From positions 1,890,001-1,922,000 of the forward strand of contig NZ_CP027570.1 of assembly GCF_003010495.1 (NCBI RefSeq): a stretch of DNA of 32,000 nucleotides, written 5' to 3'. Origin of the DNA: Megasphaera elsdenii DSM 20460. GTDB taxonomy: Bacteria; Bacillota; Negativicutes; Veillonellales; Megasphaeraceae. The stretch's first letter is position 1; each line of letters opens with the position of its first letter. The position numbers and the translations under genes were made by a program. This document shows, piece after piece, positions 197 through 24,660 of the stretch. A model generated the notes under the pieces. The model worked only from the letters and a program-made list of their open reading frames with translations, was not told where the DNA came from and made no database searches.

Positions 197-1990
197 ATGG
201 ATACAATGGAAGGTTTACACCGCTCCCAATACTGCGCTGAAGTAAGTGAAGCGGACAACGGCAAAGAAGTCGTCTTGACCGGTTGGGTAGAACGCCGCCG
301 CGACCACGGCGGACTGATCTTCATCGATCTCCGCGACCGTACGGGCATCGTACAGGTCGTCGCTTCGCCGGATTATGAAAAGGTTTCTTTCGATAAAGCA
401 GAACAGGTACGTACAGAATACGTCCTGGCTGTACGCGGTATCGTCCGCATGCGTGATAAAGATACGATCAACCCCAAGATGAAGACGGGCACTATCGAAA
501 TCCGCTGCGAAGAACTGCGCATCCTCAATTCGTCCAAGACACCGCCGTTCTACATTGAAGACAACATCGACGTCGACGAAAAGATACGCCTGAAATACCG
601 TTACCTCGACTTGCGTCGTCCGGAAATGCAGAAGAACCTCATTATGCGCCATAAAGTAAAACATGCCATGCGGACGTTCCTCAACGAACACGGTTTCATC
701 GACATCGAAACGCCGGAACTCTGCAAGAGCACGCCAGAAGGCGCTCGTGACTACCTCGTACCGAGCCGTGTCAACGAAGGCAAATTCTATGCGCTGCCGC
801 AGTCGCCGCAGATTTTTAAACAGCTGCTCATGATTTCCGGTATGGACCGCTACTACCAGATCGCCCGCTGCTTCCGCGATGAAGACTTGCGCGCCGACCG
901 CCAGCCGGAATTTACTCAGCTCGACATGGAAATGTCCTTCATGGACCAGGAAGAAATCCTGACCCTCGTCGAACAGATGGTACACTACATCTTCAAAGAA
1001 ACGTTGGGCCACGACGTCCAGCTCCCGATCCACCGCATGACCTGGGACTACGCCATGGCAAACTACGGCTCTGATAAGCCGGACCTGCGCTTCGACATGA
1101 AGTTCACCGACATTACAGAACTTGTCAAGGATACGGACTTCAAAGTCTTCCGCAACGTCATCGATAACGGTGGTCAGGTCAAAGCCATCAACGTCAAAGG
1201 TGACGCTGATATTCCCCGCCGCGAACTGGACGGCCTCGTCGAATACGTCAGCCACTACGGCGCAAAAGGCCTGGCCTGGATCGGCTTCCTCGAAGACGGC
1301 ACGCTTAAATCGCAGATCAAGAAGTTCTTTGGTGAAGATAAGCTCCGCGAAATCGGTAAGGCCTGCGGCGCTGAAAAAGGCGACTTGGTCCTCATGATCG
1401 CCGATAAACCGAAAATCGTCGCAGCCGCTCTGGGCGAACTGCGTAAAGAAATGGCCCGCCGCATGAATCTCATCGACGAAAACGAATTCGCCTTTACGTG
1501 GGTCGTCGACTTCCCCATGTTCGAATACAGCGAAGAAGAACACCGCTATGTTGCTATGCACCATCCGTTCACAGCTATGCGCGATGAAGACCTGGACAAA
1601 CTGGAAACAGACCCGGCTCACGTCTATGCCAAGGCCTATGACCTGGTCCTCAACGGCATCGAACTCGGCGGCGGCTCCCTCCGTATCTACCAGCCGGACG
1701 TACAGCAGCGCGTCTTCAAGGCCATCGGCCTGACACCGGAAGAAGCAGAACAGAAATTCGGCTTCCTCCTCCGTGCCTTCGAATACGGTGCACCGCCCCA
1801 CGGTGGCCTGGCCTTCGGCCTGGACCGCATGATCATGCTCATGCTCAAACGCAAGTCCATCCGCGACGTCATCGCTTTCCCGAAGACCCAGAACGCTATC
1901 GACCCCATGAGCGAAGCTCCGTCGACAGTTACCAAAAAACAGCTGCATGAACTCCACATCCAAGTAGAAGAAGACTTGGTAAGTAAATAA
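197..1990 (+). CDS. aspS: aspartate--tRNA ligase
   Basis: ORF 95..1990. I place the start at ATG 197 (MDTMEGLHRSQYCAEV), 10 nt after AAGGGA, because the upstream part overlaps the hisS end. Class II aaRS motifs are present: FYALPQSPQIFKQLLM, QIARCFRDEDLRADRQPEFTQLD, GGGSLRIY, GLAFGLDR. Confidence 0.97.
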   Translation: MDTMEGLHRSQYCAEVSEADNGKEVVLTGWVERRRDHGGLIFIDLRDRTGIVQVVASPDYEKVSFDKAEQVRTEYVLAVRGIVRMRDKDTINPKMKTGTIEIRCEELRILNSSKTPPFYIEDNIDVDEKIRLKYRYLDLRRPEMQKNLIMRHKVKHAMRTFLNEHGFIDIETPELCKSTPEGARDYLVPSRVNEGKFYALPQSPQIFKQLLMISGMDRYYQIARCFRDEDLRADRQPEFTQLDMEMSFMDQEEILTLVEQMVHYIFKETLGHDVQLPIHRMTWDYAMANYGSDKPDLRFDMKFTDITELVKDTDFKVFRNVIDNGGQVKAINVKGDADIPRRELDGLVEYVSHYGAKGLAWIGFLEDGTLKSQIKKFFGEDKLREIGKACGAEKGDLVLMIADKPKIVAAALGELRKEMARRMNLIDENEFAFTWVVDFPMFEYSEEEHRYVAMHHPFTAMRDEDLDKLETDPAHVYAKAYDLVLNGIELGGGSLRIYQPDVQQRVFKAIGLTPEEAEQKFGFLLRAFEYGAPPHGGLAFGLDRMIMLMLKRKSIRDVIAFPKTQNAIDPMSEAPSTVTKKQLHELHIQVEEDLVSK

Positions 1991-1997
1991 CGAGATG

Positions 1998-2032
1998 AAA
2001 AAAAGCTTGTCGTATAACGGCAAGCTTTTTTT
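1998..2032 (+). terminator. rho-independent terminator of aspS
   Basis: aaaaaaagcttgtcg-tataa-cggcaagcttttttt is a GC-containing stem followed by a T run. The A run on the 5' side could make it bidirectional. Confidence 0.85.
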
Positions 2033-2326
2033 CGTGGCTCGTGGTTCGTGATTCGTGGCTTGTGGTTCGTGGCTCGTGATTCGTGGCTCGTGGTTCGTGG
2101 CTCGTGATTCGTGGCTCGTGGCTCGTGGTTCGTGATTCGTGGCTTGTGGTTCGTGGCTCGTGATTCGTGGCTCGTGGTTCGTGGCTCGTGATTCGTGGCT
2201 CGTGGCTCGTGGCTCGTGATTCGTGGCTCGTGGCTCGTGGTTCGTGGCTCGTGATTCGTGGCTCGTGGCTCGTGGTTCGTGGCTCGTGGTTCGTGGCTCG
2301 TGGTTCGTGGCTCGTGGTTCGTGGTT
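2033..2326 (+). repeat. 42 uninterrupted tandem heptamers
   Basis: Hand-parsed in perfect 7-bp register from 2033 to 2326. Unit counts: CGTGGCT x22, CGTGGTT x10, TGTGGTT x2, CGTGATT x8. Units 1-12 (2033-2116) are identical to units 13-24 (2117-2200), an 84-bp higher-order repeat. The last unit runs straight into CGTAGGGG of the next repeat. Confidence 0.97.
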
Positions 2327-2830
2327 CGTAGGGGCCGTCCCAAAGGGCGGCCCGCTGTGATATTTGACCACAGCCCGTTCTGGTATTATGGTGAGCCTTT
2401 CTTCGGACTCCGATGCAGCTTCGCCGCGACAGACTCATGATTGTATTACGACCAAGTGTTGTCCGTCATAAATTCCGGTTGTGTACAGGATTCAGGCGGG
2501 ACGCCTTGACAGGACGTCCCCTACGGTATCGCAGACAGGCGATGAAAAAATGAACGCTGGCCGTAAATGGCAGCTCGCAAAAATATACGGCCTGTGGTCA
2601 TGTGAGTAAGGGTCCGTCCTGATAAGGAAGCCCGTGTGTGGGAATCCCGTAAATCGCTTCGTGGCTAGCAATCAGCCGTCAGCCGCGGTCCCATGGACCG
2701 CTTTCGTAGGGGCCGTCCCAAAGGGCGGCCCGCTGTGATATTTGACCACAACCCGTTCTGGTATTATGGTAAGCCTTTCAGGTGCTACTATGCGGACGCG
2801 ATTGGTTTACGAGCCACGAACCACTAACAC
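2327..2830. repeat. cluster of four REP-like units (GTAG + GC hairpin + conserved tail) with a terminal mini heptamer array
   Basis: Forward units: 2328-2355 (GTAGGGGCCGTCC-CAAA-GGGCGGCCCGC) and 2706-2733. Reverse unit: 2495-2524 (reverse complement GTAGGGGACGTCC-TGTCAA-GGCGTCCCGCC). Degenerate forward unit: 2606-2650 (GTAAGGGTCCGTCC-TGATAA-GGAAGCCCGTGTGTGGGAATCCCGT). Segments 2327-2401 and 2705-2779 are 75-bp direct repeats with 2 mismatches. ACGAGCC ACGAACC heptamers in the opposite orientation lie at 2809-2829. Confidence 0.85.
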
Positions 2831-2864
2831 ACATATTGACAAATGTCAATGTGTGCGTTATACT
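2831..2864 (+). promoter_or_regulatory. ars promoter with overlapping palindromic operator
   Basis: TTGACA (2836-2841), 17 nt, TATACT (2859-2864). The perfect palindrome ATTGACA-AA-TGTCAAT (2835-2850), extended by CACAT/GTGTG, overlaps the -35. This is the classic layout for ArsR autorepression. Confidence 0.8.
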
Positions 2865-2908
2865 CTAACCATAGATTGATAAACTTCGATATGAAAGGAG
2901 GCATCGTG

Positions 2909-3220
2909 ATGGACGAAAGGGAAGCAGTCCGCGTTTTTAAAGCCTTGGGCGATGAAAAACGCCTGCGCATTTTGTCGCTCCTGCGGCAAGGGGAACGGTG
3001 TGCCTGTGTACTCTTGGAACACTTGAACTTGTCCCAGCCGACGCTGTCCCATCACATGAAGATTCTTTGCGAGGCCCGGCTGGTCACAGGCCGCAAAGAA
3101 GGGAAGTGGGTCTATTATTCCCTCAATACGGCGCAAGCCCCGGTCCTGGAACAGGCCGTACACGACTTATTTCAACTCAGTGCCGTGCCGGCAGAGGACG
3201 AAGCCTGCCATTGCCAGTAA
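2909..3220 (+). CDS. arsR: ArsR/SmtB-family arsenite-responsive repressor
   Basis: I place the start at ATG 2909 (MDEREAVRVFKALGDEKRLRILSLL) behind GAAAGGAGG. The metalloid site resembles ELCVCDL (ERCACVLLEHL). The HTH is LSQPTLSHHMKIL. It is the first gene of the arsDA-acr3 operon. Confidence 0.9.
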   Translation: MDEREAVRVFKALGDEKRLRILSLLRQGERCACVLLEHLNLSQPTLSHHMKILCEARLVTGRKEGKWVYYSLNTAQAPVLEQAVHDLFQLSAVPAEDEACHCQ

Positions 3221-3236
3221 GGCAGGTTTCTTTTTT
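3204..3236 (+). terminator. weak hairpin + T run between arsR and arsD (possible attenuator)
   Basis: cctgcc (3204-3209) pairs with ggcagg (3221-3226) and is followed by tttctttttt. The stem is only 6 bp with an 11-nt loop. Confidence 0.4.
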
Positions 3237-3286
3237 AGCTAATACATTGATAAATGTAAATATATGAATTTTTTAGGAAGTCTTTT

Positions 3287-3778
3287 ATGATGAAACATAT
3301 GGAAATCTTTGAACAAGCAATGTGCTGCCCGACCGGTCTCTGCGGTCCTTCTATCGACCCGGAACTCTTGCGCGTATCGACCGTTTTGGACACGCTCAAA
3401 CAGCATGGCATCGACGTCGGCCGCTATAACTTGACCAGTGCGCCTTTGAAATTCGTCCAGACGAAGGCCGTTACGGACTTCCTCCAGCACCACGGCCCGG
3501 AAGACCTGCCCCTCATCCTCGTCGACGGCGCCGTCCAGTTTGCCGGCCGCTATCCGACGAATGATGAATTTGCCAGCCTCATCGGCTTCGACCCGGCCAT
3601 CCTCGAAGCAGCCCAGGCTGCTGGGGAAAGCTGCTGCTGCGGCGATAGCGCCGAAGAAACGGCTTCCTGCTGCTGCAGCGATGCACCGGCTGAAAGTGAA
3701 GCTTCTTCCTGTTGTTGTGGCGATGCACCGGCAGAACCGGAAAGCTCGTCGTGCTGCTGCGGAGGTGACTGCAAGTGA
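3287..3778 (+). CDS. arsD: arsenic metallochaperone ArsD with an extended Cys-triplet repeat tail
   Basis: MMKHMEIFEQAMCCPTGLCG matches the ArsD N-terminal Cys12/Cys13/Cys18 motif. AGGAAG lies 7 nt upstream. The tail (3626-3775) carries four CCC triplets. Confidence 0.9.
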   Translation: MMKHMEIFEQAMCCPTGLCGPSIDPELLRVSTVLDTLKQHGIDVGRYNLTSAPLKFVQTKAVTDFLQHHGPEDLPLILVDGAVQFAGRYPTNDEFASLIGFDPAILEAAQAAGESCCCGDSAEETASCCCSDAPAESEASSCCCGDAPAEPESSSCCCGGDCK

Positions 3779-5508
3779 TCCTCTATGATCCCTTTCGCGT
3801 CGTCCAGACGAAATACCTCTTCCTGACCGGCAAGGGCGGCGTCGGCAAGACGTCTGTCGCCTGTGCTACGGCTGTCGCTCTGGCCGATGCCGGGAAGAAG
3901 GTCCTGCTCATCAGTACCGACCCGGCGTCGAACCTGCAAGACGTCTTTTCTATGGAACTGACTAACAAGGCTACGGCCATTGACGCCGTGCCTAATCTGG
4001 CTGTGGCCAATCTGGATCCGGTCCAGGCCGCTGCCGAATATAGGGAAAGCGTCATCGGCCCTTATCGCGGCCTTTTGCCGGAAGCAGCCCTGCGCAACAT
4101 GGAAGAACAGCTGTCCGGCTCTTGTACTGTAGAAATCGCCGCCTTCAATGAGTTCACCAATTTCCTCACCGACGAAACCGTCGCCCGCGATTACGACCAC
4201 ATCCTTTTCGATACGGCGCCGACAGGCCACACCCTGCGCATGCTGCAGCTGCCGTCGGCGTGGAGCCAGTTCATCCAGAAGAGCAAACACGGCGCGTCCT
4301 GCCTGGGCCAGCTGTCGGGGCTGGAATCGCGGAAAGAACTGTACAAGCAGGCCGTCCAGACCCTGGCCGACGGGGCTCAGACGACGATGCTCCTCGTCGC
4401 CCGTCCCGATAGCCTGCCCCTGAAAGAAGCGGCGCGGGCGTCGAAGGAACTGGCCGCCCTGGGCATTGCCAACCAGCAGCTCATCATCAACGGCCTCCTG
4501 CCTTCCTACGATGACGATGCGACCAAGACCTTATATGAAAAGCAGCAGGCTGCCTTGCAGGCCATGCCTGGGGCTATTTCCGATTTACCGCGTTTCCAGA
4601 TTCCCTTGCGGACGTACAATATCACCGGCTTGGACCACGTCCGGGCCCTGCTCAAAGGGGAAGTGAAGGAAGCGGCGACGGAACTGACGCTGGAATGGGT
4701 CCAGCCCCTGCAGGCCGTCATCGACGATTTGGAAAGCAGCCATCGCAAGGTCATCTTCACCATGGGCAAAGGCGGCGTCGGTAAGACGACTGTCGCCGCA
4801 GCCATCGCCTTGGGCCTGGCCCGCCGCGGCCATCGCGTCCACTTGACGACGACCGACCCGGCCGCCCATTTGCAGTATATCGTCAGCCAGACGGACAACC
4901 TGACCTTGAGCCATATCGACGAAGGGGAAGAGCTGAGAAAATACCAGGATGAAGTCCTGAACCAGGCCAAAGCCAACGGCCTGGGCCCGTCGGACCTGGC
5001 CTATATCGAAGAAGACCTGCGTTCGCCGTGCACCCAAGAAATTGCCGTCTTCCACGCCTTTGCCGATATCGTCGAAGCCGCCGACGACCAGATCGTCGTC
5101 ATCGACACGGCGCCGACAGGCCATACGCTGCTGCTCCTGGAATCGACGGAAAGCTACGATAAGGAAATCCGCCGGACCCATGGCTCGACGCCGCCGTCGG
5201 TACAGCACTTGCTGCCGCGTCTGAAAGGGAAGGAAACGGAAGTCGTCATCGTCACCTTGCCCGAAGCGACGCCGGTATACGAAGCCCTGCGCCTGGAAGC
5301 GGACCTGAAGCGGACCAAGCTGCGCTCGAAGTGGTGGGTCATCAACAAGTCCTTTTATCAGGCCAAGACGACGAGCCCTTTGTTAAAGGCCAAAGCCTCG
5401 CATGAAATCCCTTGGATCAACAAAGTCGATGAACATACAAAAGGCCACACGGCCCTCATCGCCTGGCGCCCAGATGAAGTCCGCGGCGACGTCCTAGGGA
5501 CGTTGTAG
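3775..5508 (+). CDS. arsA: arsenite-stimulated ATPase ArsA (two-domain)
   Basis: The GTG start overlaps the arsD stop (GTGA) and is preceded by GGAGGTGA. There are two P-loops (GKGGVGKTSVACA, GKGGVGKTTVAAA) and two DTAPTGHTL signature motifs, consistent with the A1 and A2 halves. Confidence 0.97.
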   Translation: MILYDPFRVVQTKYLFLTGKGGVGKTSVACATAVALADAGKKVLLISTDPASNLQDVFSMELTNKATAIDAVPNLAVANLDPVQAAAEYRESVIGPYRGLLPEAALRNMEEQLSGSCTVEIAAFNEFTNFLTDETVARDYDHILFDTAPTGHTLRMLQLPSAWSQFIQKSKHGASCLGQLSGLESRKELYKQAVQTLADGAQTTMLLVARPDSLPLKEAARASKELAALGIANQQLIINGLLPSYDDDATKTLYEKQQAALQAMPGAISDLPRFQIPLRTYNITGLDHVRALLKGEVKEAATELTLEWVQPLQAVIDDLESSHRKVIFTMGKGGVGKTTVAAAIALGLARRGHRVHLTTTDPAAHLQYIVSQTDNLTLSHIDEGEELRKYQDEVLNQAKANGLGPSDLAYIEEDLRSPCTQEIAVFHAFADIVEAADDQIVVIDTAPTGHTLLLLESTESYDKEIRRTHGSTPPSVQHLLPRLKGKETEVVIVTLPEATPVYEALRLEADLKRTKLRSKWWVINKSFYQAKTTSPLLKAKASHEIPWINKVDEHTKGHTALIAWRPDEVRGDVLGTL

Positions 5509-5548
5509 CTTGTATTTCAATTTATCTGTTTATAGGAGGTTCCTTATC

Positions 5549-6583
5549 ATGGAACATGAATCACAGACCGGCATCAGTTTTTTTCAGCGCTATCTGACCC
5601 TTTGGGTTTTGTTATGCATGGTTGTCGGCGTAGCCATCGGGTATGCCCTTCCGGCTGTCCCGGCCTTTTTAGATACGTTACAGGTCATGGGGATTTCCAT
5701 TCCCATTGCTATTTTGATTTGGGTCATGATTTACCCGATGATGATGAAAGTCGACTTTCAGAGCATCAAAGCCGTAGGACGCCAGCCTAAAGGCCTGTTC
5801 GTCACGTGGATTGCCAACTGGCTCATTAAGCCGTTTACCATGTATGCCATTGCCTGGTTCTTCCTTTTTGTCCTTTTCAGTTCCTGGATTCCGACAGATC
5901 TGGCTCGTCAATACTTAGCTGGAGCCGTACTGCTCGGTGCGGCTCCCTGCACGGCCATGGTTTTCGTCTGGAGTACCCTGGCCAATGGGAATCCGGCCTA
6001 TACCGTCATCCAGGTTGCGACGAATGACTTGATCATCCTCATCGCTTTCGTACCTATCGTCAAGTTCCTCTTAGGCGTTTCACAAGTCACGGTGCCTTAT
6101 AGTGTCCTCTTTGTCAGTATCTTTCTGTTCGTCGTCATTCCCTTGGCAGGCGGTATCCTGACTCGGATGACAGTAGTTAAGCGAAAAGGCCTCGATTATT
6201 TTGAACAGCACTTTGTCCACAAATTCGATTCGGCAACGACTTGGGGCCTGTTACTGACGCTGGTCATTATCTTCAGCTCTCAGGCCCAGGTCATCTTATC
6301 GAATCCGCTTCACATCGTGCTCATCGCCATTCCGCTGACAGTGCAGACTTTCCTCATCTTCTTCCTTGCCTACGGAGCCTGCCGGCTGCTGAAACTGCCC
6401 TTTGACATTGCCGCCCCGGCTGGCTTCATCGGTGCTTCTAACTTTTTTGAATTAGCCGTTGCCGTAGCCATCGCCCTGTTTGGTGTTACCAGCCCGGCAG
6501 CCCTGGCGACGACTGTCGGCGTCCTGACGGAAGTCCCGATTATGCTGACCCTGGTCCGTATCGCCTTAGCTACCAGAAACTAA
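5549..6583 (+). CDS. acr3: ACR3-family arsenite efflux permease
   Basis: I place the start at ATG 5549 (MEHESQTGISFFQRYLTLWV) behind AGGAGG. It is a multi-TM protein with the ACR3 hallmark LGAAPCTAMV. Confidence 0.94.
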   Translation: MEHESQTGISFFQRYLTLWVLLCMVVGVAIGYALPAVPAFLDTLQVMGISIPIAILIWVMIYPMMMKVDFQSIKAVGRQPKGLFVTWIANWLIKPFTMYAIAWFFLFVLFSSWIPTDLARQYLAGAVLLGAAPCTAMVFVWSTLANGNPAYTVIQVATNDLIILIAFVPIVKFLLGVSQVTVPYSVLFVSIFLFVVIPLAGGILTRMTVVKRKGLDYFEQHFVHKFDSATTWGLLLTLVIIFSSQAQVILSNPLHIVLIAIPLTVQTFLIFFLAYGACRLLKLPFDIAAPAGFIGASNFFELAVAVAIALFGVTSPAALATTVGVLTEVPIMLTLVRIALATRN

Positions 6584-6596
6584 TTTATAGCTACGA

Positions 6597-6757
6597 ACGG
6601 CCGCCCCACGTGGTCGCCCCTACAGAAACCCCATCCACGAACCATGAGCTACGAGCCACGAACCACGAACCACGGGATTCCCACAAGCGGGCCGCCTTTA
6701 CAGGACGGCCCCTACGAGCCACGAACCACGAGCCACGAACCACGAGCCACGAGCCAC
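6597..6757 (-). repeat. REP-like hairpins alternating with heptamer arrays (minus orientation)
   Basis: REP units lie at 6599-6623 (ends CCCCTAC) and 6687-6715 (GCGGGCCGCC-TTTACA-GGACGGCCCCTAC). Heptamers (CCACGAA, ACGAGCC, ACGAACC) lie at about 6636-6675 and 6714-6755. These are the reverse complements of the units at 2033-2355. Confidence 0.85.
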
Positions 6758-6758
6758 T

Positions 6759-6795
6759 AAAAAAGCGGCTGTCTTCAAAGGACAGCCGCTTTTTC
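6759..6795. terminator. bidirectional terminator shared by acr3 and the convergent oxidoreductase gene
   Basis: aaaaa-agcggctgtc-ttcaaag-gacagccgct-ttttt is a 10-bp perfect stem with an A run on one side and a T run on the other. Confidence 0.88.
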
Positions 6796-8390: not shown

Positions 8391-8404
8391 GGCCGTATGA
8401 GATG

Positions 8405-8500
8405 ATAGCCACGAACCACGGACCACGAAAACCCCACAAGCGGGCCGCCTTTACAGGACGGCCCCTACAAATCACGAGCCACGAACCACGAGCCACGAAA
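8405..8500 (-). repeat. REP-like hairpin flanked on both sides by short heptamer arrays
   Basis: GCGGGCCGCC-TTTACA-GGACGGCCCCTAC lies at 8440-8468, with the hairpin identical to that of the 6687-6715 copy. CCACGAA/CCACGGA units lie at 8409-8430 and GCCACGA/ACCACGA units at 8471-8498. Confidence 0.85.
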
Positions 8501-8633: not shown

Positions 8634-8900
8634 ATGTTAAGCGTAGAAGAAAAAAAAGCAATCGTAGCTAAATTTGGTGCCAATGAAAACGATACGGGTT
8701 CTCCGGAAGTACAGATCGCGCTCCTCACGAGCCGCATCATCTATTTGACGGAACATCTCCGCAGCCACAAAAAGGACCATGCATCCCGCCGCGGCTTGTT
8801 GAAACTCGTCGGCCAGCGCCGTAACTTGCTCGGTTACTTGCAGAAACACGATCTCGACCGTTATCGTGCTATTCTCGAAAAATTGAACTTGCGTAAATAA
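8634..8900 (+). CDS. rpsO: 30S ribosomal protein S15
   Basis: 88 aa: [63 protein letters not shown]. The RBS is GGAGGAAAG. The gene is followed by pnp. Confidence 0.97.
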
Positions 8901-13563: not shown

Positions 13564-14868
13564 ATGTGGCCCATCGACTGCATCGAACACAAGCGGGACG
13601 GCAAAGTCCTGACTAAAGAGGAAATTACGCGCTTCATCGACGATTATACGGCCGGCCGCATCGCTGACTATCAGGCCGCAGCCTGGCTCATGGCCATCTA
13701 TTTCCAGGGCATGACCTATGAAGAAACGAAGGAACTGACCCTGGCTATGGCTCATTCCGGCGATATGGTCGATTTGTCGTCCATTCCGGGCATCAAAGTC
13801 GACAAGCACAGCACCGGCGGCATTGCCGATACGACGACGCTCATCGTGGCGCCGTTGGTAGCGGCAGCCGGCGTCCCCGTGGCCAAGATGAGCGGCCGCG
13901 GCCTGGGATTTACCGGCGGTACGGCGGATAAACTGGAATCCATCCCCGGCTTCCACGTTGTCCTGCCGGAAGAAACCTTCCTGGAACAGGTGCGCCGCAT
14001 CGGCTTGTCCCTCATCACCCAGTCCGGCGAAATCGCGCCGGCGGATAAACTGCTCTATGCCCTGCGCGACGCGACGGCGACCGTTGAGAGCATCCCCCTC
14101 ATTGCCAGCTCGATCATGAGCAAGAAAATCGCTTCCGGTGCCGACGCCATCGTCCTCGATGTCAAGTACGGTGACGGCGCCTTCATGAAGACCAAAGAAC
14201 GGGCGCGGGAACTGGCTAAGACCATGGTCGGTATCGGCAATCTCGCCGGCCGGCCGACGCGGGCTGTCGTCACCTCCATGGAAGCGCCTCTCGGCACGGC
14301 CATCGGCAACTGCCTGGAAGTCGATGAAGCCGTCGAAGCCCTCTCCGGTAAAGGCGGCCGCCGCCTGATGGAAGTCGTCGAAGCCATCGGCGCCCAGATG
14401 CTCCTCGTCGGCGGCAAAGTAAGAGACGAAGGGGAAGGGCGGGCCCTGATTCGGGACCTCGTCGCGTCCGGCAAAGGCCTGGCGAAATTCAGAGAATTCG
14501 TCAAAGCCCAGGGCGGCAGCACATCGTGGATTGGCAAGCGGCCCCTCACCAAGGCACCCCAAGTCTTTACGGCGGTCTGCACCGATGAAGGCTACATCAC
14601 GCGCATCGACGGCCGGGCCCTCGGTGAAATTGCCATGGCCATGGGCGCCGGCCGGGCCCGCAAAGAAGACAAAATCGACCCGATGGTCGGCATCCGCCTG
14701 TTCAAGGAACTCTACGACCCGGTCCGTCCTGGCGAAGCCTTGTTCACCCTGTACGGCAAGGAAGGCGCCGATATGATGGCCCTGGCCCAGCAGGTCGCCG
14801 ACCACATCATCGTCACGCCCGACCAGGCAGACACCATCGAACCCGTCGTCAGTGAAGTGATAGTATAA
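13564..14868 (+). CDS. pdp: pyrimidine-nucleoside (thymidine) phosphorylase
   Basis: Motifs KHSTGGIADTTTLIVAPLVAAAGVPVAKMSGRGLGFTGGTADKLESIPGF. The RBS is GAGGTGA. Confidence 0.95.
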   Translation: MWPIDCIEHKRDGKVLTKEEITRFIDDYTAGRIADYQAAAWLMAIYFQGMTYEETKELTLAMAHSGDMVDLSSIPGIKVDKHSTGGIADTTTLIVAPLVAAAGVPVAKMSGRGLGFTGGTADKLESIPGFHVVLPEETFLEQVRRIGLSLITQSGEIAPADKLLYALRDATATVESIPLIASSIMSKKIASGADAIVLDVKYGDGAFMKTKERARELAKTMVGIGNLAGRPTRAVVTSMEAPLGTAIGNCLEVDEAVEALSGKGGRRLMEVVEAIGAQMLLVGGKVRDEGEGRALIRDLVASGKGLAKFREFVKAQGGSTSWIGKRPLTKAPQVFTAVCTDEGYITRIDGRALGEIAMAMGAGRARKEDKIDPMVGIRLFKELYDPVRPGEALFTLYGKEGADMMALAQQVADHIIVTPDQADTIEPVVSEVIV

Positions 14869-14869
14869 A

Positions 14870-14920
14870 GTTTGTAGTTTGTAGTTTACAGTGTAGGGGC
14901 GCCCATGCGGGGCGCCCGCC
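14870..14920 (+). repeat. REP-like GTAG hairpin preceded by three GTTTGTA-type heptamers
   Basis: GTTTGTA GTTTGTA GTTTACA (14870-14890) is followed by GTGTAGG. The GTAG is at 14893-14896 and the hairpin GGGGCGCCC-ATGC-GGGGCGCCC runs to 14920. Confidence 0.8.
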
Positions 14921-14927
14921 TGAAAGG

Positions 14928-16319
14928 ATGTCCATGAAAGAATTACGCCATATCCCCGTCCAGAAGGGGAAAACCTATGACATATCCATTGCCCGCCTGG
15001 GTACCAGTGGCGAAGGCGTCGGCCGTTACGAAGGCTTTACGATCTTCGTGCCCTTCGCCTTGCCAGGCGAACAGGTCCGGGCCCGCATTACCCTGGTGAA
15101 GAAAAATTATGCCACAGCGGCTTTAGTCGAGGTCTTGAAGCCTTCGCCGGACCGGATTCAGCCCCAGTGTCCCGTCTACGACCGTTGCGGCGGCTGTCAA
15201 CTCCAGCACCTCAGTTATGAAGGAGAATTGAAGGAAAAGCGCCAGCAAGTCCGGGATGCCCTGGAACGCATCGGTCACTTGCAACATATCGATGTCTTGC
15301 CGACTTTAGGCGCTAACACGCCTTGGCATTACCGCAACAAGATGCAGTTTCCCGTCGCCGCTGCCGGAAAGGGGAAAGTCGCCATCGGCTGTTTTGCTGC
15401 GGCTACGCACGAAGTCATCGACGTGACGGACTGCGCCATCCAGAAAGAAGGCAACAACGCCATCGTCGCCGTCGTCCGCCAGTGGATGAAGGACTTCAAG
15501 ATTCCCGCCTATGACGAAGACGCCCGGACGGGCATCGTCCGCCACATCATGGGCCGCGTCGGCGTCCATACCGGCGAAATCATGGTCTGCCTGATCACGG
15601 CCTGCGATATGGTGCCACACATGAAAGATTTGGTCCAGCGCCTGCGCCGGGATATCCCTGGTCTGACCAGCGTCGTCCAGAACGTCAACAAGCGCCATAC
15701 TAACGTCATCTTAGGGCCCAAAACGAAGACCGTCTACGGCAAAGGGACCATCCACGACTCCATCGGCCCTTTGACCTTCCACATTTCAGCGCAGTCCTTC
15801 TTCCAGGTCAACAGCGAACAGGCCCAGCGCCTCTATGAAACGGCCCTCGATTTCGCCGACCTCAAAGGCGGGGAAACCGTGGCCGATGTCTACTGCGGCA
15901 CCGGGACCATCACCCTGTTCCTGGCCCAGAAAGCCAAACAAGTCTACGGCATCGAAATCGTCGCCCCGGCTATTCGTGACGCCGTTCGCAATGCCAAAGA
16001 CAACCACGTCGGCAACGCCCAGTTCATCTTAGGCGATGCTATCTATAAATTGCCGGAACTCATCAAAAACGGCATCCGTCCCGACGTCATCGTCCTCGAC
16101 CCGCCCCGGGCCGGCTGCGGTGAACCCGTCCTCAAAGCCATCGCCCAGAGCAAACCCAAACGCGTCGTCTACGTCTCCTGCAATCCGGCCACCCTGGCCC
16201 GCGACCTGGCCTACCTGGACCAGCACGGCTACCATACCGCTAAAGTACAGCCTGTAGACATGTTCCCGCGGACCCACCATGTTGAGTCAGTAGCATTGAT
16301 GTCAAGAGAAGAAAAATAG
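14928..16319 (+). CDS. rlmD: 23S rRNA (uracil-5-)-methyltransferase, RumA/RlmD family
   Basis: It has an N-terminal TRAM-like region, the Fe-S cysteines CPVYDRCGGCQLQH, the SAM fold DVYCGTGTITL and DPPRAGC, and a C-terminal VDMFPRTHHVESV. The start could also be ATG 14934. Confidence 0.92.
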   Translation: MSMKELRHIPVQKGKTYDISIARLGTSGEGVGRYEGFTIFVPFALPGEQVRARITLVKKNYATAALVEVLKPSPDRIQPQCPVYDRCGGCQLQHLSYEGELKEKRQQVRDALERIGHLQHIDVLPTLGANTPWHYRNKMQFPVAAAGKGKVAIGCFAAATHEVIDVTDCAIQKEGNNAIVAVVRQWMKDFKIPAYDEDARTGIVRHIMGRVGVHTGEIMVCLITACDMVPHMKDLVQRLRRDIPGLTSVVQNVNKRHTNVILGPKTKTVYGKGTIHDSIGPLTFHISAQSFFQVNSEQAQRLYETALDFADLKGGETVADVYCGTGTITLFLAQKAKQVYGIEIVAPAIRDAVRNAKDNHVGNAQFILGDAIYKLPELIKNGIRPDVIVLDPPRAGCGEPVLKAIAQSKPKRVVYVSCNPATLARDLAYLDQHGYHTAKVQPVDMFPRTHHVESVALMSREEK

Positions 16320-16348: not shown

Positions 16349-16411
16349 GGATATTGATTATTTAGGTCCATATTTGTAAAATGGCCTGTAAAACTGTGTT
16401 TTTAGCACACC

Positions 16412-16513
16412 ATGGATGAAGATTTTCTACCTCGGGGCTTCAATATGGATGTTAAAATGGGGAAATTCCAGGTTGGGGCTTTAAGATGGATGTGAAAAAA
16501 TTCAATATAAGAC
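16412..16513 (+). repeat. tandem direct repeat of about 40 bp, with three ATGGATG cores
   Basis: GGGGCTTCAATATGGATGTTAAAATGG (from 16434) matches GGGGCTTTAAGATGGATGTGAAAAAAT (from 16475). ATGGATG occurs at 16412, 16445 and 16486. Confidence 0.7.
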
Positions 16514-16515
16514 AG

Positions 16516-16561
16516 AATAAGAGCAGGCGCCCCATCACTTGGTGGAGCGCCTGCTCTTATT
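16516..16561. other. 15-bp perfect GC-rich inverted repeat in an AT-rich context
   Basis: aataagagcaggcgc (16516-16530) pairs with gcgcctgctcttatt (16547-16561) around a 16-nt loop. No adjacent T run is present on either strand, so it is not a canonical terminator. Confidence 0.6.
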
Positions 16562-16650
16562 CGTTTGCCAGAACGTAAAATCATTTCATGTCCTTCTTAT
16601 ATAGCAAATTATTATATATGACACTAAATTGTGATTAAAATTACTCTAAT

Positions 16651-16679
16651 TTGCAAATAAAAAACATAAATGATAAAAT
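16651..16679 (+). promoter_or_regulatory. promoter of the exported-protein operon
   Basis: TTGCAA (16651-16656), 17 nt, TAAAAT (16674-16679), with an extended-10 TG at 16671-16672. Confidence 0.6.
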
Positions 16680-16722
16680 TAAATAAATATTATCGTGATA
16701 TTTATTGTTGGGAGGGCAGTTT

Positions 16723-17313
16723 ATGAAAAGTATTAAAAAAATTCCATTAATTGTAGCAACGGCATGTATGATTTGCTTACCTTTTTGTACGAGTCATGCA
16801 ATTACTTACATTCCAAGTTCAGAATCAGATGGTTCCTATGAAGCGGGTCAAGCTGCCGGATCTCTTTTAGGAGCGTTGTTTAGTCGGAATCGTCGACCTC
16901 ATATTAATGTGCATAAGCAGTATGTATACGCAGGGAGCAACGGTTCCTCTGCTTTCTACATAGACTTATCATCTGCTAAATCTATAAAGAAGACAGATAC
17001 ATTCAAATTGGCATCGGCTGATTTTATTTATGTTGATTATACGAAAGAACAAATTTATAAGATAAAAAATCATATTTCATACGATGTAAGTAGCCAAGTT
17101 GCTAGAGTTTCTTTAGCCTCAATGAGCACATTCGATTATAAAGGAAAATTGTTACAGGGGCCTGCAGAGGGAAATGGTCAATTTTCAGATGTAAATCCGC
17201 AAGGTCCTACGGCTGCTGCTGTGAATACGGTTTATAACAAGCTGTATGGGATGGCTTTCTATTATGATTCTTCGATTCCCGTATTAACAAAAACAGGTGC
17301 CTTGGTTGATTAA
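16723..17313 (+). CDS. exported protein of unknown function (signal peptide)
   Basis: ATG 16723 lies behind GGGAGGG. The N-terminus is MKSIKKIPLIVATACMICLPFCTSHA-ITYIP. I recognise no family. Confidence 0.7.
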   Translation: MKSIKKIPLIVATACMICLPFCTSHAITYIPSSESDGSYEAGQAAGSLLGALFSRNRRPHINVHKQYVYAGSNGSSAFYIDLSSAKSIKKTDTFKLASADFIYVDYTKEQIYKIKNHISYDVSSQVARVSLASMSTFDYKGKLLQGPAEGNGQFSDVNPQGPTAAAVNTVYNKLYGMAFYYDSSIPVLTKTGALVD

Positions 17314-17327
17314 AGGATGTGATTTAT

Positions 17328-17840
17328 ATGTCAGTGCGACTAAATAAATTAAGTATTTTTTTTCTTGTGTGTGTAGTGTTTTTTTCTTTTACATTACAGG
17401 CATTTGCTGCTGAAAAACTAGATCAAAAATATATGGGCTTAGGAGATTTAACATGGGGGAGACCTCTTTATGATATTGAAGGCGAATATGATGTTAAATT
17501 CGTAAATAAAAGAACATCAAGTATAGCGTCGACTTCTGTAGAAACCTATTTAATTAGAATTCCAGAAGCCAATGGAAACATGTGTTTTTATGGGCCGCTT
17601 GTAGCTTCTGCTGAGTTTGCGAATGGAAAATTGTTTGCTATAATTATCCCTTTTAAGGGTTATGATGACGAACTCTACAAATTGACCGAAAAATTTGGTC
17701 ACCCACCATATGGAGATAGTTCTAATACAGTAGGCTGGCGTGGTGAACGTATATTGATTTTCTTAAAACGGGAACAAAGTGATTTTGATGGCACTTTAAT
17801 ATTAATAATGCCAGGAGCACAAGATTTTCTTTATAAATAA
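17328..17840 (+). CDS. exported protein of unknown function (signal peptide)
   Basis: ATG 17328 lies behind AAAGGA. The N-terminus is MSVRLNKLSIFFLVCVVFFSFTLQAFA-AEK. It starts 15 nt after the previous gene. Confidence 0.7.
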   Translation: MSVRLNKLSIFFLVCVVFFSFTLQAFAAEKLDQKYMGLGDLTWGRPLYDIEGEYDVKFVNKRTSSIASTSVETYLIRIPEANGNMCFYGPLVASAEFANGKLFAIIIPFKGYDDELYKLTEKFGHPPYGDSSNTVGWRGERILIFLKREQSDFDGTLILIMPGAQDFLYK

Positions 17841-17867
17841 ACTATTTGTAATAGGAGGATAATTAAT

Positions 17868-18371
17868 ATGAAGAAAATACTCGTTTTAATAAGTATGTTG
17901 TTCATTCTTGTAAGCGCGAATGCATACGCTTCTTGGGAATATATGGGCAATGACTCTTCTGGGAATCAAGAGTATATATTGCCAGAAAGTTCACAAGTTA
18001 TAAAATTTACACCTAAACAATTTGAATGGACAGTACAAGTAAAAGAAATATATAGTCGTGAAGGAAAAAGTGATCTTATTAGTAATTATGCGTTAAAAGG
18101 CGTTAAAATCAAAGGTATCGAATTAGCGGATTACGAAATTAAGACTTATCATTTTAAAGCCTGGAAAGATCAAGTAGGGTTTAGAGTGGATAATTCCTAT
18201 GGATACAACAATAATGGTTATCAAGTATGTACCTTTAAAGGGTGGTACAGTTTTGAGCCTTTTGAATCGAGATCTCTTGTTGGTTTATTTTCATACAGAG
18301 CATTAAATTATTTGGAAACTTTGAACAATATTGACTATTTTAAAATTTTAATAGAGAACAATAAAAAATAA
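17868..18371 (+). CDS. exported protein of unknown function (signal peptide)
   Basis: ATG lies behind AGGAGG. The N-terminus is MKKILVLISMLFILVSANAYA-SWEY. Confidence 0.7.
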   Translation: MKKILVLISMLFILVSANAYASWEYMGNDSSGNQEYILPESSQVIKFTPKQFEWTVQVKEIYSREGKSDLISNYALKGVKIKGIELADYEIKTYHFKAWKDQVGFRVDNSYGYNNNGYQVCTFKGWYSFEPFESRSLVGLFSYRALNYLETLNNIDYFKILIENNKK

Positions 18372-18410
18372 ATTGCGTAAAAAATTCATGAATTATAAAG
18401 GAGAAATTTT

Positions 18411-18740
18411 ATGAAAAGAATTGCATTAATTCTAGGATTGATTCTCGCCTTATTTACTTTTTCTGCTGGCGCTTCTGCATGTCCGTATTGTGGAGCTCCA
18501 GGTTATTTCACAGGGGAAAGAGGAAACAATTATAGTAATTCGTGGGATGTATATCAATGTTCGAATGGTCATCGATATGATGTCCCTAATACTCTTTCTG
18601 GCAGTACTTCTGGCCCAAGAAATAATTGTCCGTATTGTGGAGCTCCAGCTTATTTTACAGGGGAAAGAGGAAATAATTACGGCAATTGGTGGGATGTATA
18701 CCAATGTTCGAATGGGCATCGATATAATGTTCCTGACTAA
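18411..18740 (+). CDS. small exported protein with a duplicated CPYCG...CSNGH module
   Basis: ATG lies behind AAAGGAG. The N-terminus is MKRIALILGLILALFTFSAGASA-CPYCG. Two 36-aa repeats lie at 18480-18587 and 18627-18734. Confidence 0.7.
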   Translation: MKRIALILGLILALFTFSAGASACPYCGAPGYFTGERGNNYSNSWDVYQCSNGHRYDVPNTLSGSTSGPRNNCPYCGAPAYFTGERGNNYGNWWDVYQCSNGHRYNVPD

Positions 18741-18808
18741 AAATATTAACTAGGCGTGGGCGTACTAAGTTGGTTTGATGCAATAAAAAATTAGACGATT
18801 TATAGAAA

Positions 18809-18856
18809 AGCGATGAACCTATGAAAAGATTTGCTCATAAGTTCATCGCTCTTTTA
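18809..18856. terminator. hairpin between the convergent exported-protein operon and the recombinase genes
   Basis: agcgatgaac (18809-18818) pairs with gttcatcgct (18841-18850) and is followed by cttttac. Confidence 0.65.
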
Positions 18857-18872
18857 CATTATAAAAATACAC

Positions 18873-20435
18873 TTATACCGTAACTTCGATGCCGGATTTA
18901 AATTTGACTAGAAAATGGTCGGGAAATATGGTGATTTTCTCGATGATTTTCCGAATGGTAATTTCGTTAAATTCTGTGATCTGCGTAGGATGTTCTCTAA
19001 TGAATTTTTTCAAGTCTTCGAGGCGTTTGATATTTGCCTGCTGGCTCAGATTATTTTGTTCAGCTTCTTCCTGTTGTTCCCGAAGGCGAAAGATTTCATT
19101 GGCAATGGCATTATAGTTCTGGCGATTCGTAGCATGCTGAATGAGCTCTTGCTGTAATTCGTCCAGGCGTTTTTGGATACATTCTGGTGAAAGTGTATCG
19201 TTTTTTATAATGGTCTTGGTGATGTTTTTCTGCATCTGCAGCAAGAAGGTGTGGCTATCAGAAAGTATGTGGTTCATGGCCTTCATTGTGATTTCCTTCA
19301 GTAGATTTTCGTTCACTGTTCGATTGGTACAGTTTATCTCGGCGCCTCTTGGATCTAGGCGGCTGATGCAGCGCCAGACGATAGATTTGTGACCTCGATT
19401 GTTCCAATGGACGCGACGGTACAATTCGCCGCAAACGCCGCAGTAGGTAATTTGGGCAAAACAGTTATTACTGGAAAAACTATGCCTTTGGCCGGAAGGG
19501 CTGATATGGACAATGCGACGGCGAACTAACTCAGCTTGTACCTGGAGAAATATGTCTTTAGGAATAATGGCCTCATGATCATTTTCAACATAGTATTGCG
19601 GGACGAAACCGTTATTCTTGACACGTTTTTTGGTGAGAAAATCGACGGTATATGTTTTTTGCAAAAGCGCATCACCCATATACTTTTCGTTCCGCAAGAT
19701 TTTATTAATCGTACTGTCATGCCATTTTTTTCGTCCGGCGCCAGTGAGGATGCCATCTGCTTCTAAATGCTTTCCTATTTTTTTCATACTATAGCCTTCG
19801 AGGTATTCGCGATAAATGCGCTTGACGACTTCTGCTTGTTCCGGATCGATGATAAGATGGCCGTTTTCGTCTTTGGTATAACCGAGAAAATGTTTATGAT
19901 TGACCTGTACTTTACCTTGCTGGTAACGGTACTGGAGGCCTAGCTTTACATTTTGGGAAAGAGATTCTGATTCTTGCTGGGCTAAACTGGCCATGATGGT
20001 GATCAGCACTTCACCTTTGGCGTCCATCGTGTTGATGGATTCTTTTTCAAAAAGGACTGGAATATTTTTTTCTTTAAGCTGACGGATGTATTTCAGGCAA
20101 TCGAGGGTATTGCGGGCGAAGCGGCTGATGGACTTGGTGATGATCATGTCGATGTTGCCAGCCATACATTCCTGGATCATACGGTTGAATTCATTGCGCT
20201 TTTTCGTGTTTGTACCCGAAATGCCGTCATCAGCAAAGATGCCGGCGAGAACCCAATCCGGATGGCTGCTGATGAATTCTTTGTAATGCGAAACTTGCGT
20301 TTCATAACTTGTTTCTTGTTCATCCGAATCGGTACTGACCCGGCAGTAGGCAGCTACACGCAGCTTCTTTTGTTCCGGTTCTTTTTCGATATTTCCCATG
20401 CGTTTTCTGGCGGGGATGATCATAACTTTTTTCAT
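18873..20435 (-). CDS. large serine recombinase (third gene of the triplet)
   Basis: The resolvase catalytic N-terminus is [21 protein letters not shown], with DDGISGT and SRFARN. It has a recombinase domain, a zinc ribbon [25 protein letters not shown] and a coiled-coil tail. Its start overlaps the upstream stop (TAATG). Confidence 0.93.
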
Positions 20436-20749
20436 TATATTGCCTCGCTTTCAATGAGACTATAGAGATATTCTGCCTGCAGCCTCGGATCGTCATAGTG
20501 TTCTTCTGCCTTATCGAAGGTCTCCTGATCGATGATGGCCGGGTAGAAATCGTCGCCGAGGTAATGCCTGTTTTGCATCAGGCGCTTTGCCGAGCTGTGG
20601 TAGGTCTCGATCCCTGCCTCGATGGCCGCTTTTGACTGTGCCATCCCAGCAAAGTAATTCTCATAAAGTTTCCTGATCTTAGCGGCTTCTTCTTCGTGAA
20701 TCACAGCGCAGCCGTTTTCGATTCTGTAGCCGTATGGTGTGTGCCCCAT
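20435..20749 (-). CDS. recombinase-domain-only protein lacking the catalytic serine domain
   Basis: 104 aa. [33 protein letters not shown] aligns with the post-catalytic segments PPYGYDWNGEQMVVNPEQAAVVKEIF and [26 protein letters not shown] of its two neighbours. It has no YxRVS motif. Confidence 0.7.
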
Positions 20750-20753
20750 GTTC

Positions 20754-24510: not shown

Positions 24511-24660
24511 CGGACTCAAATGCGGCGTTCCGCACGCCGTTCGTCATAAATTCCGGCTGTGCATAGGATTCACACGGGGCAGAAAGGCTTTGGGCGTCCC
24601 CTATGAAATCGCATACTGGTGATGGAAAAGAACGCAGATTGCAAAAAAACGGCCATATAA
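24505..24660 (-). repeat. second copy of the interspersed repeat of about 160-190 bp seen at 2400-2596
   Basis: Shared blocks are TTCGGACTC..ATGC.GC, CGTCATAAATTCCGG(T/C)TGTG(T/C)A(C/T)AGGATTCA, a degenerate REP hairpin ending GGCGTCCCCTAT, ATCGCA.AC.GG.GATG.AAAA and GAACGC. Confidence 0.7.

Follow-up and report, generated by a model that had tools for sequence, protein, structure and literature searches.

A probable REP–RAYT system in Megasphaera elsdenii, a member of the Negativicutes

In Escherichia coli, binding and cleavage of repetitive extragenic palindromes (REPs) by the transposase TnpAREP require both a GTAG tetranucleotide and a stem mismatch (PMC3333891). The hosts in the 2013 survey of GTAG repeats were Proteobacteria, Cyanobacteria, Chloroflexi and the PVC superphylum, and its text nowhere mentions Firmicutes, Negativicutes or Megasphaera (PMC3733652). 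The association of REP-associated tyrosine transposases (RAYTs) with inverted REP doublets (REPINs) has been reported only for the proteobacterial RAYT groups 2 and 3 (bioRxiv 10.1101/2021.07.10.451892). REP–RAYT (REPIN) work has been done almost only in Proteobacteria, and surveys of GTAG-type REPs include no host of the Firmicutes lineage. Our literature search found no report of REPs in Megasphaera or Firmicutes, and searching full texts for Megasphaera combined with 'repetitive extragenic' gave nothing relevant. Here we describe a hairpin family in a 32,000-nt stretch of DNA (the window) from Megasphaera elsdenii, a gut and rumen bacterium of the Negativicutes (Bacillota), with a cluster of copies in the spacer between aspS and arsR. 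The hairpins are most probably REP elements of a REP–RAYT system native to Megasphaera. An earlier note, made from the sequence of the window, had read the hairpins as REP elements that a RAYT-type Y1 transposase mobilises in a Firmicutes-type genome; the placement of the host was right, the system was borne out, and mobility itself is argued by analogy. Because a matching, REP-flanked RAYT occurs in M. elsdenii, a repeat system known from proteobacteria appears to be present in a Negativicutes genome as well.

The hairpin family and the aspS–arsR cluster

The sequence GTAGGGGMCGTCC matches the window exactly at five sites and with at most two mismatches at eight. Shuffled sequences gave 0.87 matches at the latter stringency, and none of 100 shuffles reached eight. 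The family has a common frame, namely an unpaired GTAG, a stem opening with GGG, a loop of 3–7 nt, a stem closing with CCC and an unpaired 3' GC, and the consensus 5' of the GTAG is T-Y-C. The stem of 8–9 bp is GC-rich and includes a conserved T·G wobble or a bulged T; cores of 26–30 nt have folding energies of -15 to -22 kcal/mol. The middle of the stem varies while remaining complementary (CCGTCC/GGGCGG, ACGTCC/GGCGT, CTCGC/GCGAG, CTTGC/GCAAG, CGCCC/GGGCG and TCGCC/GGCGA). Covariation was counted, and a covariance model built, on an alignment of 42 distinct family members. Standard pairs fill 91.4% of the cells in this alignment, compared with 79.9% after column shuffling and 41–54% with the partner slid. 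Cells in which both sides of a pair have changed number 39 against 8.6 expected, a value reached by none of 500 shuffles, and compensatory changes are present in five of the nine stem pairs. The pair at columns 14–25 is T·G (U·G) in 19 and C-G in 17 of the 42 sequences, and in the subfamily with a TGTAAA loop the T is bulged out of the stem. The wobble or bulged T therefore leaves a good hairpin on the GTAG strand only. The GTAG itself is found in all 42 aligned members, an invariance by construction because they were gathered with a pattern demanding GTAGGGG. Independent support comes from a weak model match at 6594–6626 (minus strand), which reads GTAG too; two decayed units read GTAA and ATAG at this position.

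The window contains six strong copies by the covariance model (38–46 bits, E-values 2e-10 to 4e-8), one weak copy (14.7 bits) and two decayed copies of this one family. Three strong copies lie in the aspS–arsR spacer. The first, at 2325–2358 on the plus strand, belongs to the subfamily GGGCCGTCC-CAAA-GGGCGGCCC (46.5 bits, with a supporting fold); the second, at 2493–2527 on the minus strand, is an A-T compensatory variant GGGACGTCC..GGCGTCCC (41.5 bits); and the third is at 2703–2736 on the plus strand (46.5 bits). The remaining strong copies are found at 6684–6718 (minus), at 8437–8471 (minus) in the divergent oxidoreductase–rpsO spacer, and at 14890–14922 (plus), the last belonging to the GGGCGCCC subfamily. 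The weak copy at 6594–6626 has an ACGTG loop and aligns as the right-arm remnant of a doublet that strains L003, L006 and L007 keep whole. One decayed unit of the TGTAAA-loop subfamily, with the tail TGTGGGAATCCCGT, occupies 2606–2651 (plus) and aligns with the copies at 6687 and 8440 although it scores below the model threshold. The other is part of a decayed right end of a doublet at 24540–24640 (plus), recognized by alignment with 2440–2545, in which a REP remnant (24575–24604, minus) is accompanied by the small terminal hairpin. The hairpin family of the earlier note is thus real by the shuffle test, the covariance model and the compensatory stem changes. Its forward units at 2328 and 2706, its reverse unit at 2495–2524 and its further copies at 6687, 8440 and 14893 are strong matches to the model, whereas its degenerate units at 2606 and 24575 were missed by the model and stand as decayed copies by alignment.

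GC-rich intergenic stem-loops, some of them just past genuine terminators, might also be intrinsic terminators at the 3' ends of genes. However, no T-run follows the stem, and a terminator scan of 1900–3000 gave none at the REPs; separate canonical terminators adjoin them at 2001–2031 (aspS) and 6761–6795. Both orientations of the hairpin are found, and divergent promoter regions contain it too; one copy, in the 60-nt spacer that separates pdp from the co-oriented rumA, stands 8 nt upstream of the ribosome-binding site of rumA. The missing T-run, the two orientations and the divergent contexts therefore argue that the hairpins are not terminators, a reading we consider scarcely credible, and the comparison favours REPs. 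Rfam at gathering thresholds gave no family anywhere in the window, a search of 1900–2950 at a permissive E-value gave spurious terminator-like matches only, and a tRNA scan found none. The hairpins have the features by which REPs are recognized: a short imperfect palindrome, an unpaired 5' GTAG, an irregularity in the stem and dispersed extragenic copies.

The cluster at 2327–2830 is flanked on one side by the aspS terminator and a heptamer array and on the other by an intact ars promoter/operator. A complete inverted REP doublet with the GTAG heads outward (REPIN-like) occupies 2320–2545 (plus strand) and consists, in order, of REP(+), the tail TGTGATATTTGACCAC..TATTATGG, the spacer CTTTCTTCGGACTCCGATGCAGCTTCGCCGCGACAGACTCA.., REP(-) and a small terminal hairpin. 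It aligns end to end with three doublets that flank a RAYT gene at locus L248, described below. The parts common to the window and the RAYT-flanking doublets are REP(+), the tail TGTGATATT.G.CCAC..TAT.ATGG, the spacer ..TTTC.TCGGACTC.GATGC.GCT.CGC.GCGACAGACTCA.., REP(-) and the hairpin ATCGC-N6-GCGAT. In the window this closing hairpin reads ATCGC-AGACAG-GCGAT (2528–2543, plus), and every RAYT-flanking doublet keeps it, as do other copies. An accessory hairpin predicted by folding, GCGGTCC-CAT-GGACCGC at 2685–2701 (plus), lies 4 nt upstream of the next GTAG, and the same module recurs 5' of many copies. The end-to-end alignment therefore resolves the four units first noticed in this spacer into the doublet at 2320–2545, the decayed unit at 2606–2651, the accessory hairpin at 2685–2701 and a half doublet at 2703–2779 (plus), made of REP and tail. 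The near identity claimed for two segments of the cluster is confirmed between 2325–2401 and 2703–2779, which are 77 nt each and 97% identical. The doublet spacer is conserved and ~140 nt long, compared with ~60 nt in another family. Neighbouring copies in the DNA sampled are arranged heads-out in 92 cases, heads-in in 45 and in tandem in 92, so that heads-out is the commonest paired form; the pairing into REPIN-like doublets that the earlier note wished to have checked is present, the doublet at 2320–2545 included.

The RAYT genes and their flanking REPs

Metagenome locus L194 contains a 149-aa open reading frame (ORF) with the motifs NHVH...WQ...YIENNP, which lies 55 nt from a REP and has REPs on both sides. 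The ORF matches Pfam family PF01797 (Y1_Tnp) with 34.4 bits against a cut-off of 23. A protein search with it retrieved Megasphaera proteins 97% identical, and more distant relatives, at about 40–45% identity, go under the name 'REP element-mobilizing transposase RayT' or else 'REP-associated tyrosine transposase'. The conserved catalytic motifs H76xH78, W114-Q115 and Y135-I-x-x-N-P align with those of E. coli RayT and other RAYTs, and the best match among solved structures is E. coli TnpAREP (4ER8). The Megasphaera protein P0121 is recorded on 450 contigs, of which the longest is 2.55 Mb and two exceed 1 Mb. Its name is 'MULTISPECIES: transposase [Megasphaera]' at NCBI and 'REP element-mobilizing transposase RayT' at JGI/IMG.

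The upstream neighbour is an amino-acid permease gene in all ten RAYT loci examined, and queC lies downstream in nine of them, L257 being different. REPs flank the gene on both sides in all ten, as they also do at L194 and L248. Upstream of the gene stand two inverted doublets with one additional copy, and downstream a single doublet, again with an additional copy. The RAYT homologue that the earlier note had suggested looking for is thus a 149-aa Y1/HUH transposase in M. elsdenii, REP-flanked and at one conserved locus, as judged from the ten loci. A second paralogue, P0138, is 48% identical and occupies another conserved locus, where its neighbours are always an aminotransferase gene on one side and a decarboxylase gene on the other. 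The REPs that flank it are of the GGGCGCC/GGGTCGCC-ACGTG subfamily, which is that of the window copies at 14890–14922 and 6594–6626. The repeats break assemblies: many metagenome contigs stop about 140 nt short of the RAYT gene or beyond it, and in HE576794.1 (DSM 20460; L004 2937–3478) a run of N lies within the aspS–arsR heptamer array and leaves the length of the array unresolved.

Classical IS200 TnpA would be another candidate for moving the hairpins, which would then be miniature transposable elements with inverted repeats (MITEs) of an IS200/IS605 element. Elements of the IS200 and IS605 families do occur in Megasphaera strains, one of them inside the L002 REP cluster. However, the L002 IS200 has subterminal hairpins, GCCACCCGTAAAACGGGTGGC and CACCCGCATAGCGGGTG, that bear no relation to the REP and carry no GTAG. 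Its TnpA clearly classes as an IS200 equivalog, with 159 bits, whereas the REP-flanked protein scores best as a REP-associated transposase. IS200 was found in one of the eight loci that span the region (L001–L008) and REPs in seven. We therefore regard a MITE origin as very improbable. The IS200 of L002 (GCA_041327485.1, 7370–8100; TnpA of 151 aa, NF033573 159 bits) stands in the place of acr3, beside the REP cluster, and the same locus has an IS110-family element between aspS and arsR (2820–3968). An IS605-like insertion in L006 (18008–19490), absent in L001, encodes a TnpB-type ORF of 258 aa and a 143-aa ORF with no Pfam match; REP targeting by it was considered and rejected, as it lies about 70 nt from a REP.

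For the REP–RAYT system, the following mechanism is proposed by analogy with E. coli TnpAREP. Each unit would act as a single-strand hairpin on the GTAG strand, with the GTAG 5' of an irregular stem. The RAYT would be a domesticated Y1/HUH tyrosine transposase; it stands at a fixed chromosomal locus, surrounded by the same doublets in a REPtron-like arrangement, and the second paralogue is flanked by a second stem subfamily. The enzyme may bind the folded GTAG strand where it becomes single-stranded, for example on the lagging-strand template, and may read the GTAG together with the stem irregularity. Cutting and rejoining at nearby sites could then excise, insert and tandemly amplify doublets and fragments, and such action would account for spacers of the aspS–arsR type, with whole, half and decayed units that vary between strains. 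Catalysis on these particular REPs, and any effect on the host, would follow the same analogy.

Dispersal, heptamer arrays and promoter-like tails

An exact-pattern scan of a collection of species-representative genomes gave at least 120 stretches, and the same pattern, narrower at one degenerate position, gave at least 118 in a metagenome collection. REP counts refer to the pieces of DNA sampled, and some statistics, the strand counts included, take in orthologous loci of related genomes. Nearly all of the matches listed for the species-representative genomes come from six genomes of the genus Megasphaera (M. elsdenii, M. intestinihominis, Megasphaera sp. WILCCON 0056, MGYG-HGUT-02555, MGYG-HGUT-00612 and UMGS1114), and the metagenome matches listed are mostly from human-gut contigs. 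About 620 copies were counted in roughly 1.8 Mb of sampled DNA, with 36–60 copies per genome in 133–203 kb. The family is thus abundant and dispersed, in at least six species-level Megasphaera genomes and many gut-metagenome contigs, as the copy-number check called for in the earlier note required of a REP family. Apparent matches inside ORFs are artefacts, the ORFs being opened by the repeats themselves. Matches from outside Megasphaera (Armatimonadota, Acidobacteriota and actinomycetes) were rejected as members since their loops and tails differ; they either form families of their own or match by chance in GC-rich DNA. Within these, GTAGGGGCCGTCCTCCGTGGCGGCCCGC is repeated in L057, L073, L081 and L122 (an Armatimonadota soil metagenome-assembled genome, MAG) and in L115 (an Acidobacteriota MAG), with GTAGGGGCCGTCCGCCGTGGCGGCCCGC in L057, and the four Armatimonadota loci have their own conserved tail, ACGTG..CCGCAG.CGTGCGGCGTGAGGGGGA.GGG. 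This repeat is apparently an independent REP-like family with nearly the same stem in distant phyla. A search of a plasmid collection with 2300–2840 gave no match.

The copies occupy convergent (43), divergent (23) and tandem (58) spacers in both orientations. The distribution bears on a rival account, in which the hairpins are kept mainly as RNA elements (3' mRNA stabilisers or attenuators) by selection at the RNA level, with a link to the RAYT that is historical. The wobble is compatible with G·U pairing on the GTAG strand only, 37 of the 58 copies in tandem contexts are co-oriented with transcription, and between convergent genes there is an enrichment of about 1.7-fold. For many GTAG families the same case is made by Di Nocera et al. 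(PMC3733652). Nonetheless, 36% of the tandem-context copies are antisense, 23 copies lie between divergent genes, and those downstream of acr3 would be read as the non-wobble strand; a role in RNA would also be compatible with RAYT-driven spread. We consider this account rather unlikely. The GTAG strand is the local majority sense strand in 75 cases versus 41 (p = 0.002), a modest bias in the direction expected if the GTAG strand lies on the lagging-strand template.

The spacers are polymorphic among strains. The aspS–arsR spacer is 112 bp in L008, where it contains the terminator and two heptamers only, versus about 900 bp in the window. The pdp–rumA spacer is empty in L001–L003 and filled elsewhere; its heptamers number two or three depending on the strain. 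The spacers of acr3 differ between strains, and the REP of the rpsO spacer is absent from the orthologous site in L008, L003 and L002.

Several points weigh against a REP–RAYT system. The first ~0.9 Mb around REPs in the species-representative genomes held no RAYT: phmmer searches with E. coli RayT and IS200 TnpA, a scan for the HuH...YxxNP motif and Pfam searches of REP-bracketed ORFs yielded housekeeping genes and one classical IS200 only. The RAYT is placed at the level of the species, by the 450 contigs, and not in the strain from which the window comes. Its score with the NCBIfam model REP_Tyr_transpos (NF047646), 73.8 bits, is under the curated equivalog cut-off of 80, hence the bland name at NCBI; this cut-off is a naming threshold and not a defining biochemical feature, and NF047646 is by far the best NCBIfam model for the protein, the IS200 model giving 27.7 bits. 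The strand bias is modest and its counts are non-independent because orthologous loci of related genomes were counted. Clean empty and filled sites with target duplications were sought in the orthologous spacers, and no exact insertion junction could be defined; these spacers differ by complex replacement and by gain and loss of heptamers, not by clean insertions with defined junctions. To our knowledge, transposition in vivo has not been shown even for E. coli TnpAREP.

Heptamer arrays accompany the REPs at several places. About 43 heptamers (YTCGTGR; 2031–2329, plus, identified with TRF) begin at the aspS terminator's T-run and continue in phase until they enter the first REP at its GTAG, and the length of this array varies between strains. 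Three reverse heptamers, TACGAGCCACGAACCACTAAC, lie just upstream of the ars promoter (2808–2828, minus). At 6635–6757 (minus) arrays of CCACGAR hold a 42-nt REP unit (6684–6718 and its tail) between two units, at 8403–8499 (minus) the REP at 8437–8471 and its tail are within an array, and at 14869–14922 (plus), between the pdp stop and the rumA ribosome-binding site, TTTGTAG heptamers precede the REP. In 0.9 Mb of Megasphaera loci 285 arrays have a period of 7, 57 a period of 6 and 24 a period of 8. There are more than 20 types of heptamer unit, and heptamer arrays also occur away from REPs and vary between strains; no strand bias of the arrays was found (37 versus 36). The RAYT-flanking doublets (L248 3490–3512 and equivalents) carry three spacer heptamers, CGAGCCA CGAACAA CGAGCCA, which the window doublet lacks; heptamers therefore also arise or insert within doublets. 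A small element of another kind in Megasphaera spacers, a hairpin with an AT-rich loop (GAAGAKGG..TTAAATTTAAA..CC), has TTTGTAG heptamers on one side and the complement of related heptamers on the other; it was seen at L002 7010–7075, in the aspS–arsR spacer of L006, in L021 and in L092.

The earlier note had described the REPs as systematically coupled to 7-bp arrays. The arrays are real and flank the copies at 6687 and 8440; 'systematically' is too strong because at least two heptamers abut a REP head in only 33 of 197 distinct contexts (17%). Of all arrays, 26% lie within 20 nt of a REP, compared with roughly 12% estimated for an even intergenic spread. Abutting arrays have a nearly fixed phase, a GTGGYTM unit followed by GTAGGGG, and in six cases the array restarts with GTGG after an insert of 29–96 nt (42 nt for the 6684–6718 unit). 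REP units thus look as if they sit inside arrays at a preferred junction. That the inserts preserve the 7-nt phase of the array was rejected, as their lengths are 42, 96, 29 and 45 nt. The arrays could be preferred landing sites of the REP/RAYT machinery, with insertion 3' of ..YT(C/A) and GTAG replacing the GTGG start, or by-products of it, a proposal that we hold to be speculative and doubtful. If true, it would provide the first mechanistic link between intergenic heptamer arrays of the short tandemly repeated repetitive (STRR) type and a Y1 transposase system.

The tail of the REP includes a promoter-like TTGACC-17-TATGGT (also TGGTATTAT) at 2364–2392 (plus), and again at 2742–2770; both point toward arsR and match 9 of 12 consensus positions. 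Together with a perfect extended -10, TGGTATAAT, in some copies (RAYT-flanking ones among them), these matches could mean that the REP and its tail, as 75-nt units, act as mobile promoters of arsR and the ars operon. However, the matches are weak and the -35 part is not kept among copies (TTAAAC, TTCCAC, TTTGCC) while TAT.ATGG is kept, and the same tail is present at many unrelated loci in either orientation to the flanking genes. Furthermore, the operon has its own promoter at 2836–2864 (TTGACA-17-TATACT, 11 of 12 matches), which is conserved in strains with no REP units, such as L008. A palindrome that overlaps this promoter's -35, ACACATATTGACAAATGTCAATGTGTG (2829–2866), is likely to be the ArsR operator; every strain in the comparison retains it. 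Mobile promoters are therefore improbable. The hexamers noticed earlier are present as described, yet they are an inherited, conserved part of the doublet spacer, and the ars promoter is the one at 2836–2864.

In the window aspS occupies 95–1990 and is followed, beyond the repeat-filled spacer, by arsR-arsD-arsA-acr3 (about 2900–6583), a pyridine nucleotide-disulphide oxidoreductase gene (6796 to about 8310, minus strand), rpsO (S15, 8634–8900), then pnp through pdp (13564–14868), and rumA (14928–16319). The gene order at rpsO is common to M. elsdenii assemblies including HE576794.1, which also shares the downstream island of the window. A low-GC segment at 16400–22313 (33–43% versus about 55%) with four small ORFs is probably an integrated mobile element and is missing at the same position in most other strains. 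The four-ORF part is followed by two minus-strand ORFs of about 520 aa, the first of which has resolvase/recombinase domains in L004. A 108-nt direct repeat, 90% identical (18480–18587 and 18627–18734), is located inside a 109-aa ORF at 18411–18740.

Comparison with known REP systems and heptamer arrays

The Megasphaera protein is already labelled RayT in IMG, by COG, and the system is therefore a known kind in a new host rather than a new kind. It provides a documented case, in an important rumen and gut bacterium, of two RAYT paralogues with matching REP subfamilies, and a tractable second lineage for RAYT–REP recognition. It also accounts for hypervariable intergenic spacers and assembly breaks in M. 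elsdenii, and cautions annotators that promoter-like motifs and long ORFs in such spacers are repeat-borne.

As in the REPs and bacterial interspersed mosaic elements (BIMEs) of E. coli, the 5' GTAG of the Megasphaera repeats is unpaired, the GC-rich palindrome that follows is imperfect and the irregularity of its stem is conserved, inverted pairs are joined by linkers that vary, and tandem clusters differ from strain to strain. As in the E. coli REPtron (TnpAREP, rayT/yafM), a REP-flanked Y1/HUH gene encodes a protein of about 150–165 aa with the same HuH, WQ and YxxNP motifs. The Megasphaera protein differs in being only 25% identical to E. coli RayT, in having no C-terminal extension and in its Negativicutes host. 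In a comparison at the level of motifs only, its NHVH, WQ and YIENNP fit subclass 2.4 of Quentin et al. rather than the subclass of the enterobacteria. Compared with those of E. coli, the spacers within doublets are conserved and, at about 140 nt, long, and accessory hairpins and heptamer arrays are attached. The REPIN–RAYT systems of Pseudomonas and Neisseria (Bertels and Rainey) share common inverted doublets, a fixed RAYT locus, apparently vertical inheritance and several RAYT paralogues that each have a separate type of REP. However, the Megasphaera RAYT looks like a member of a different group from groups 2 and 3, many Megasphaera copies are singletons or in tandem, and the doublet spacers exceed the <130 bp of the REPIN definition (bioRxiv 10.1101/2021.07.10.451892). 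The GTAG super-family of 24 families (Di Nocera et al. 2013, PMC3733652) is alike in its terminal GTAG, stems of 6–13 bp with frequent G·T pairs, complementary stem changes between subfamilies, HH, TT and HT dimers, and clustering.

Intergenic heptamer arrays are known from cyanobacteria, Xanthomonas and Beggiatoaceae, and their origin is unexplained (PMC4692102, PMC4679880); no published link between such arrays and REPs was found in the literature. The Megasphaera arrays resemble the STRR sequences of cyanobacteria, the GGGAATC and GGGGAYT arrays of Xanthomonas and Nostoc and the TAACTGA arrays of Beggiatoaceae in being intergenic with a period of 7, in copy numbers that vary highly among close relatives and in having several unit sequences per genome. 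They differ from these known arrays in that some abut REP heads in a fixed phase and have REP units inside them, and these in-phase junctions offer a concrete route to the origin of bacterial heptamer arrays.

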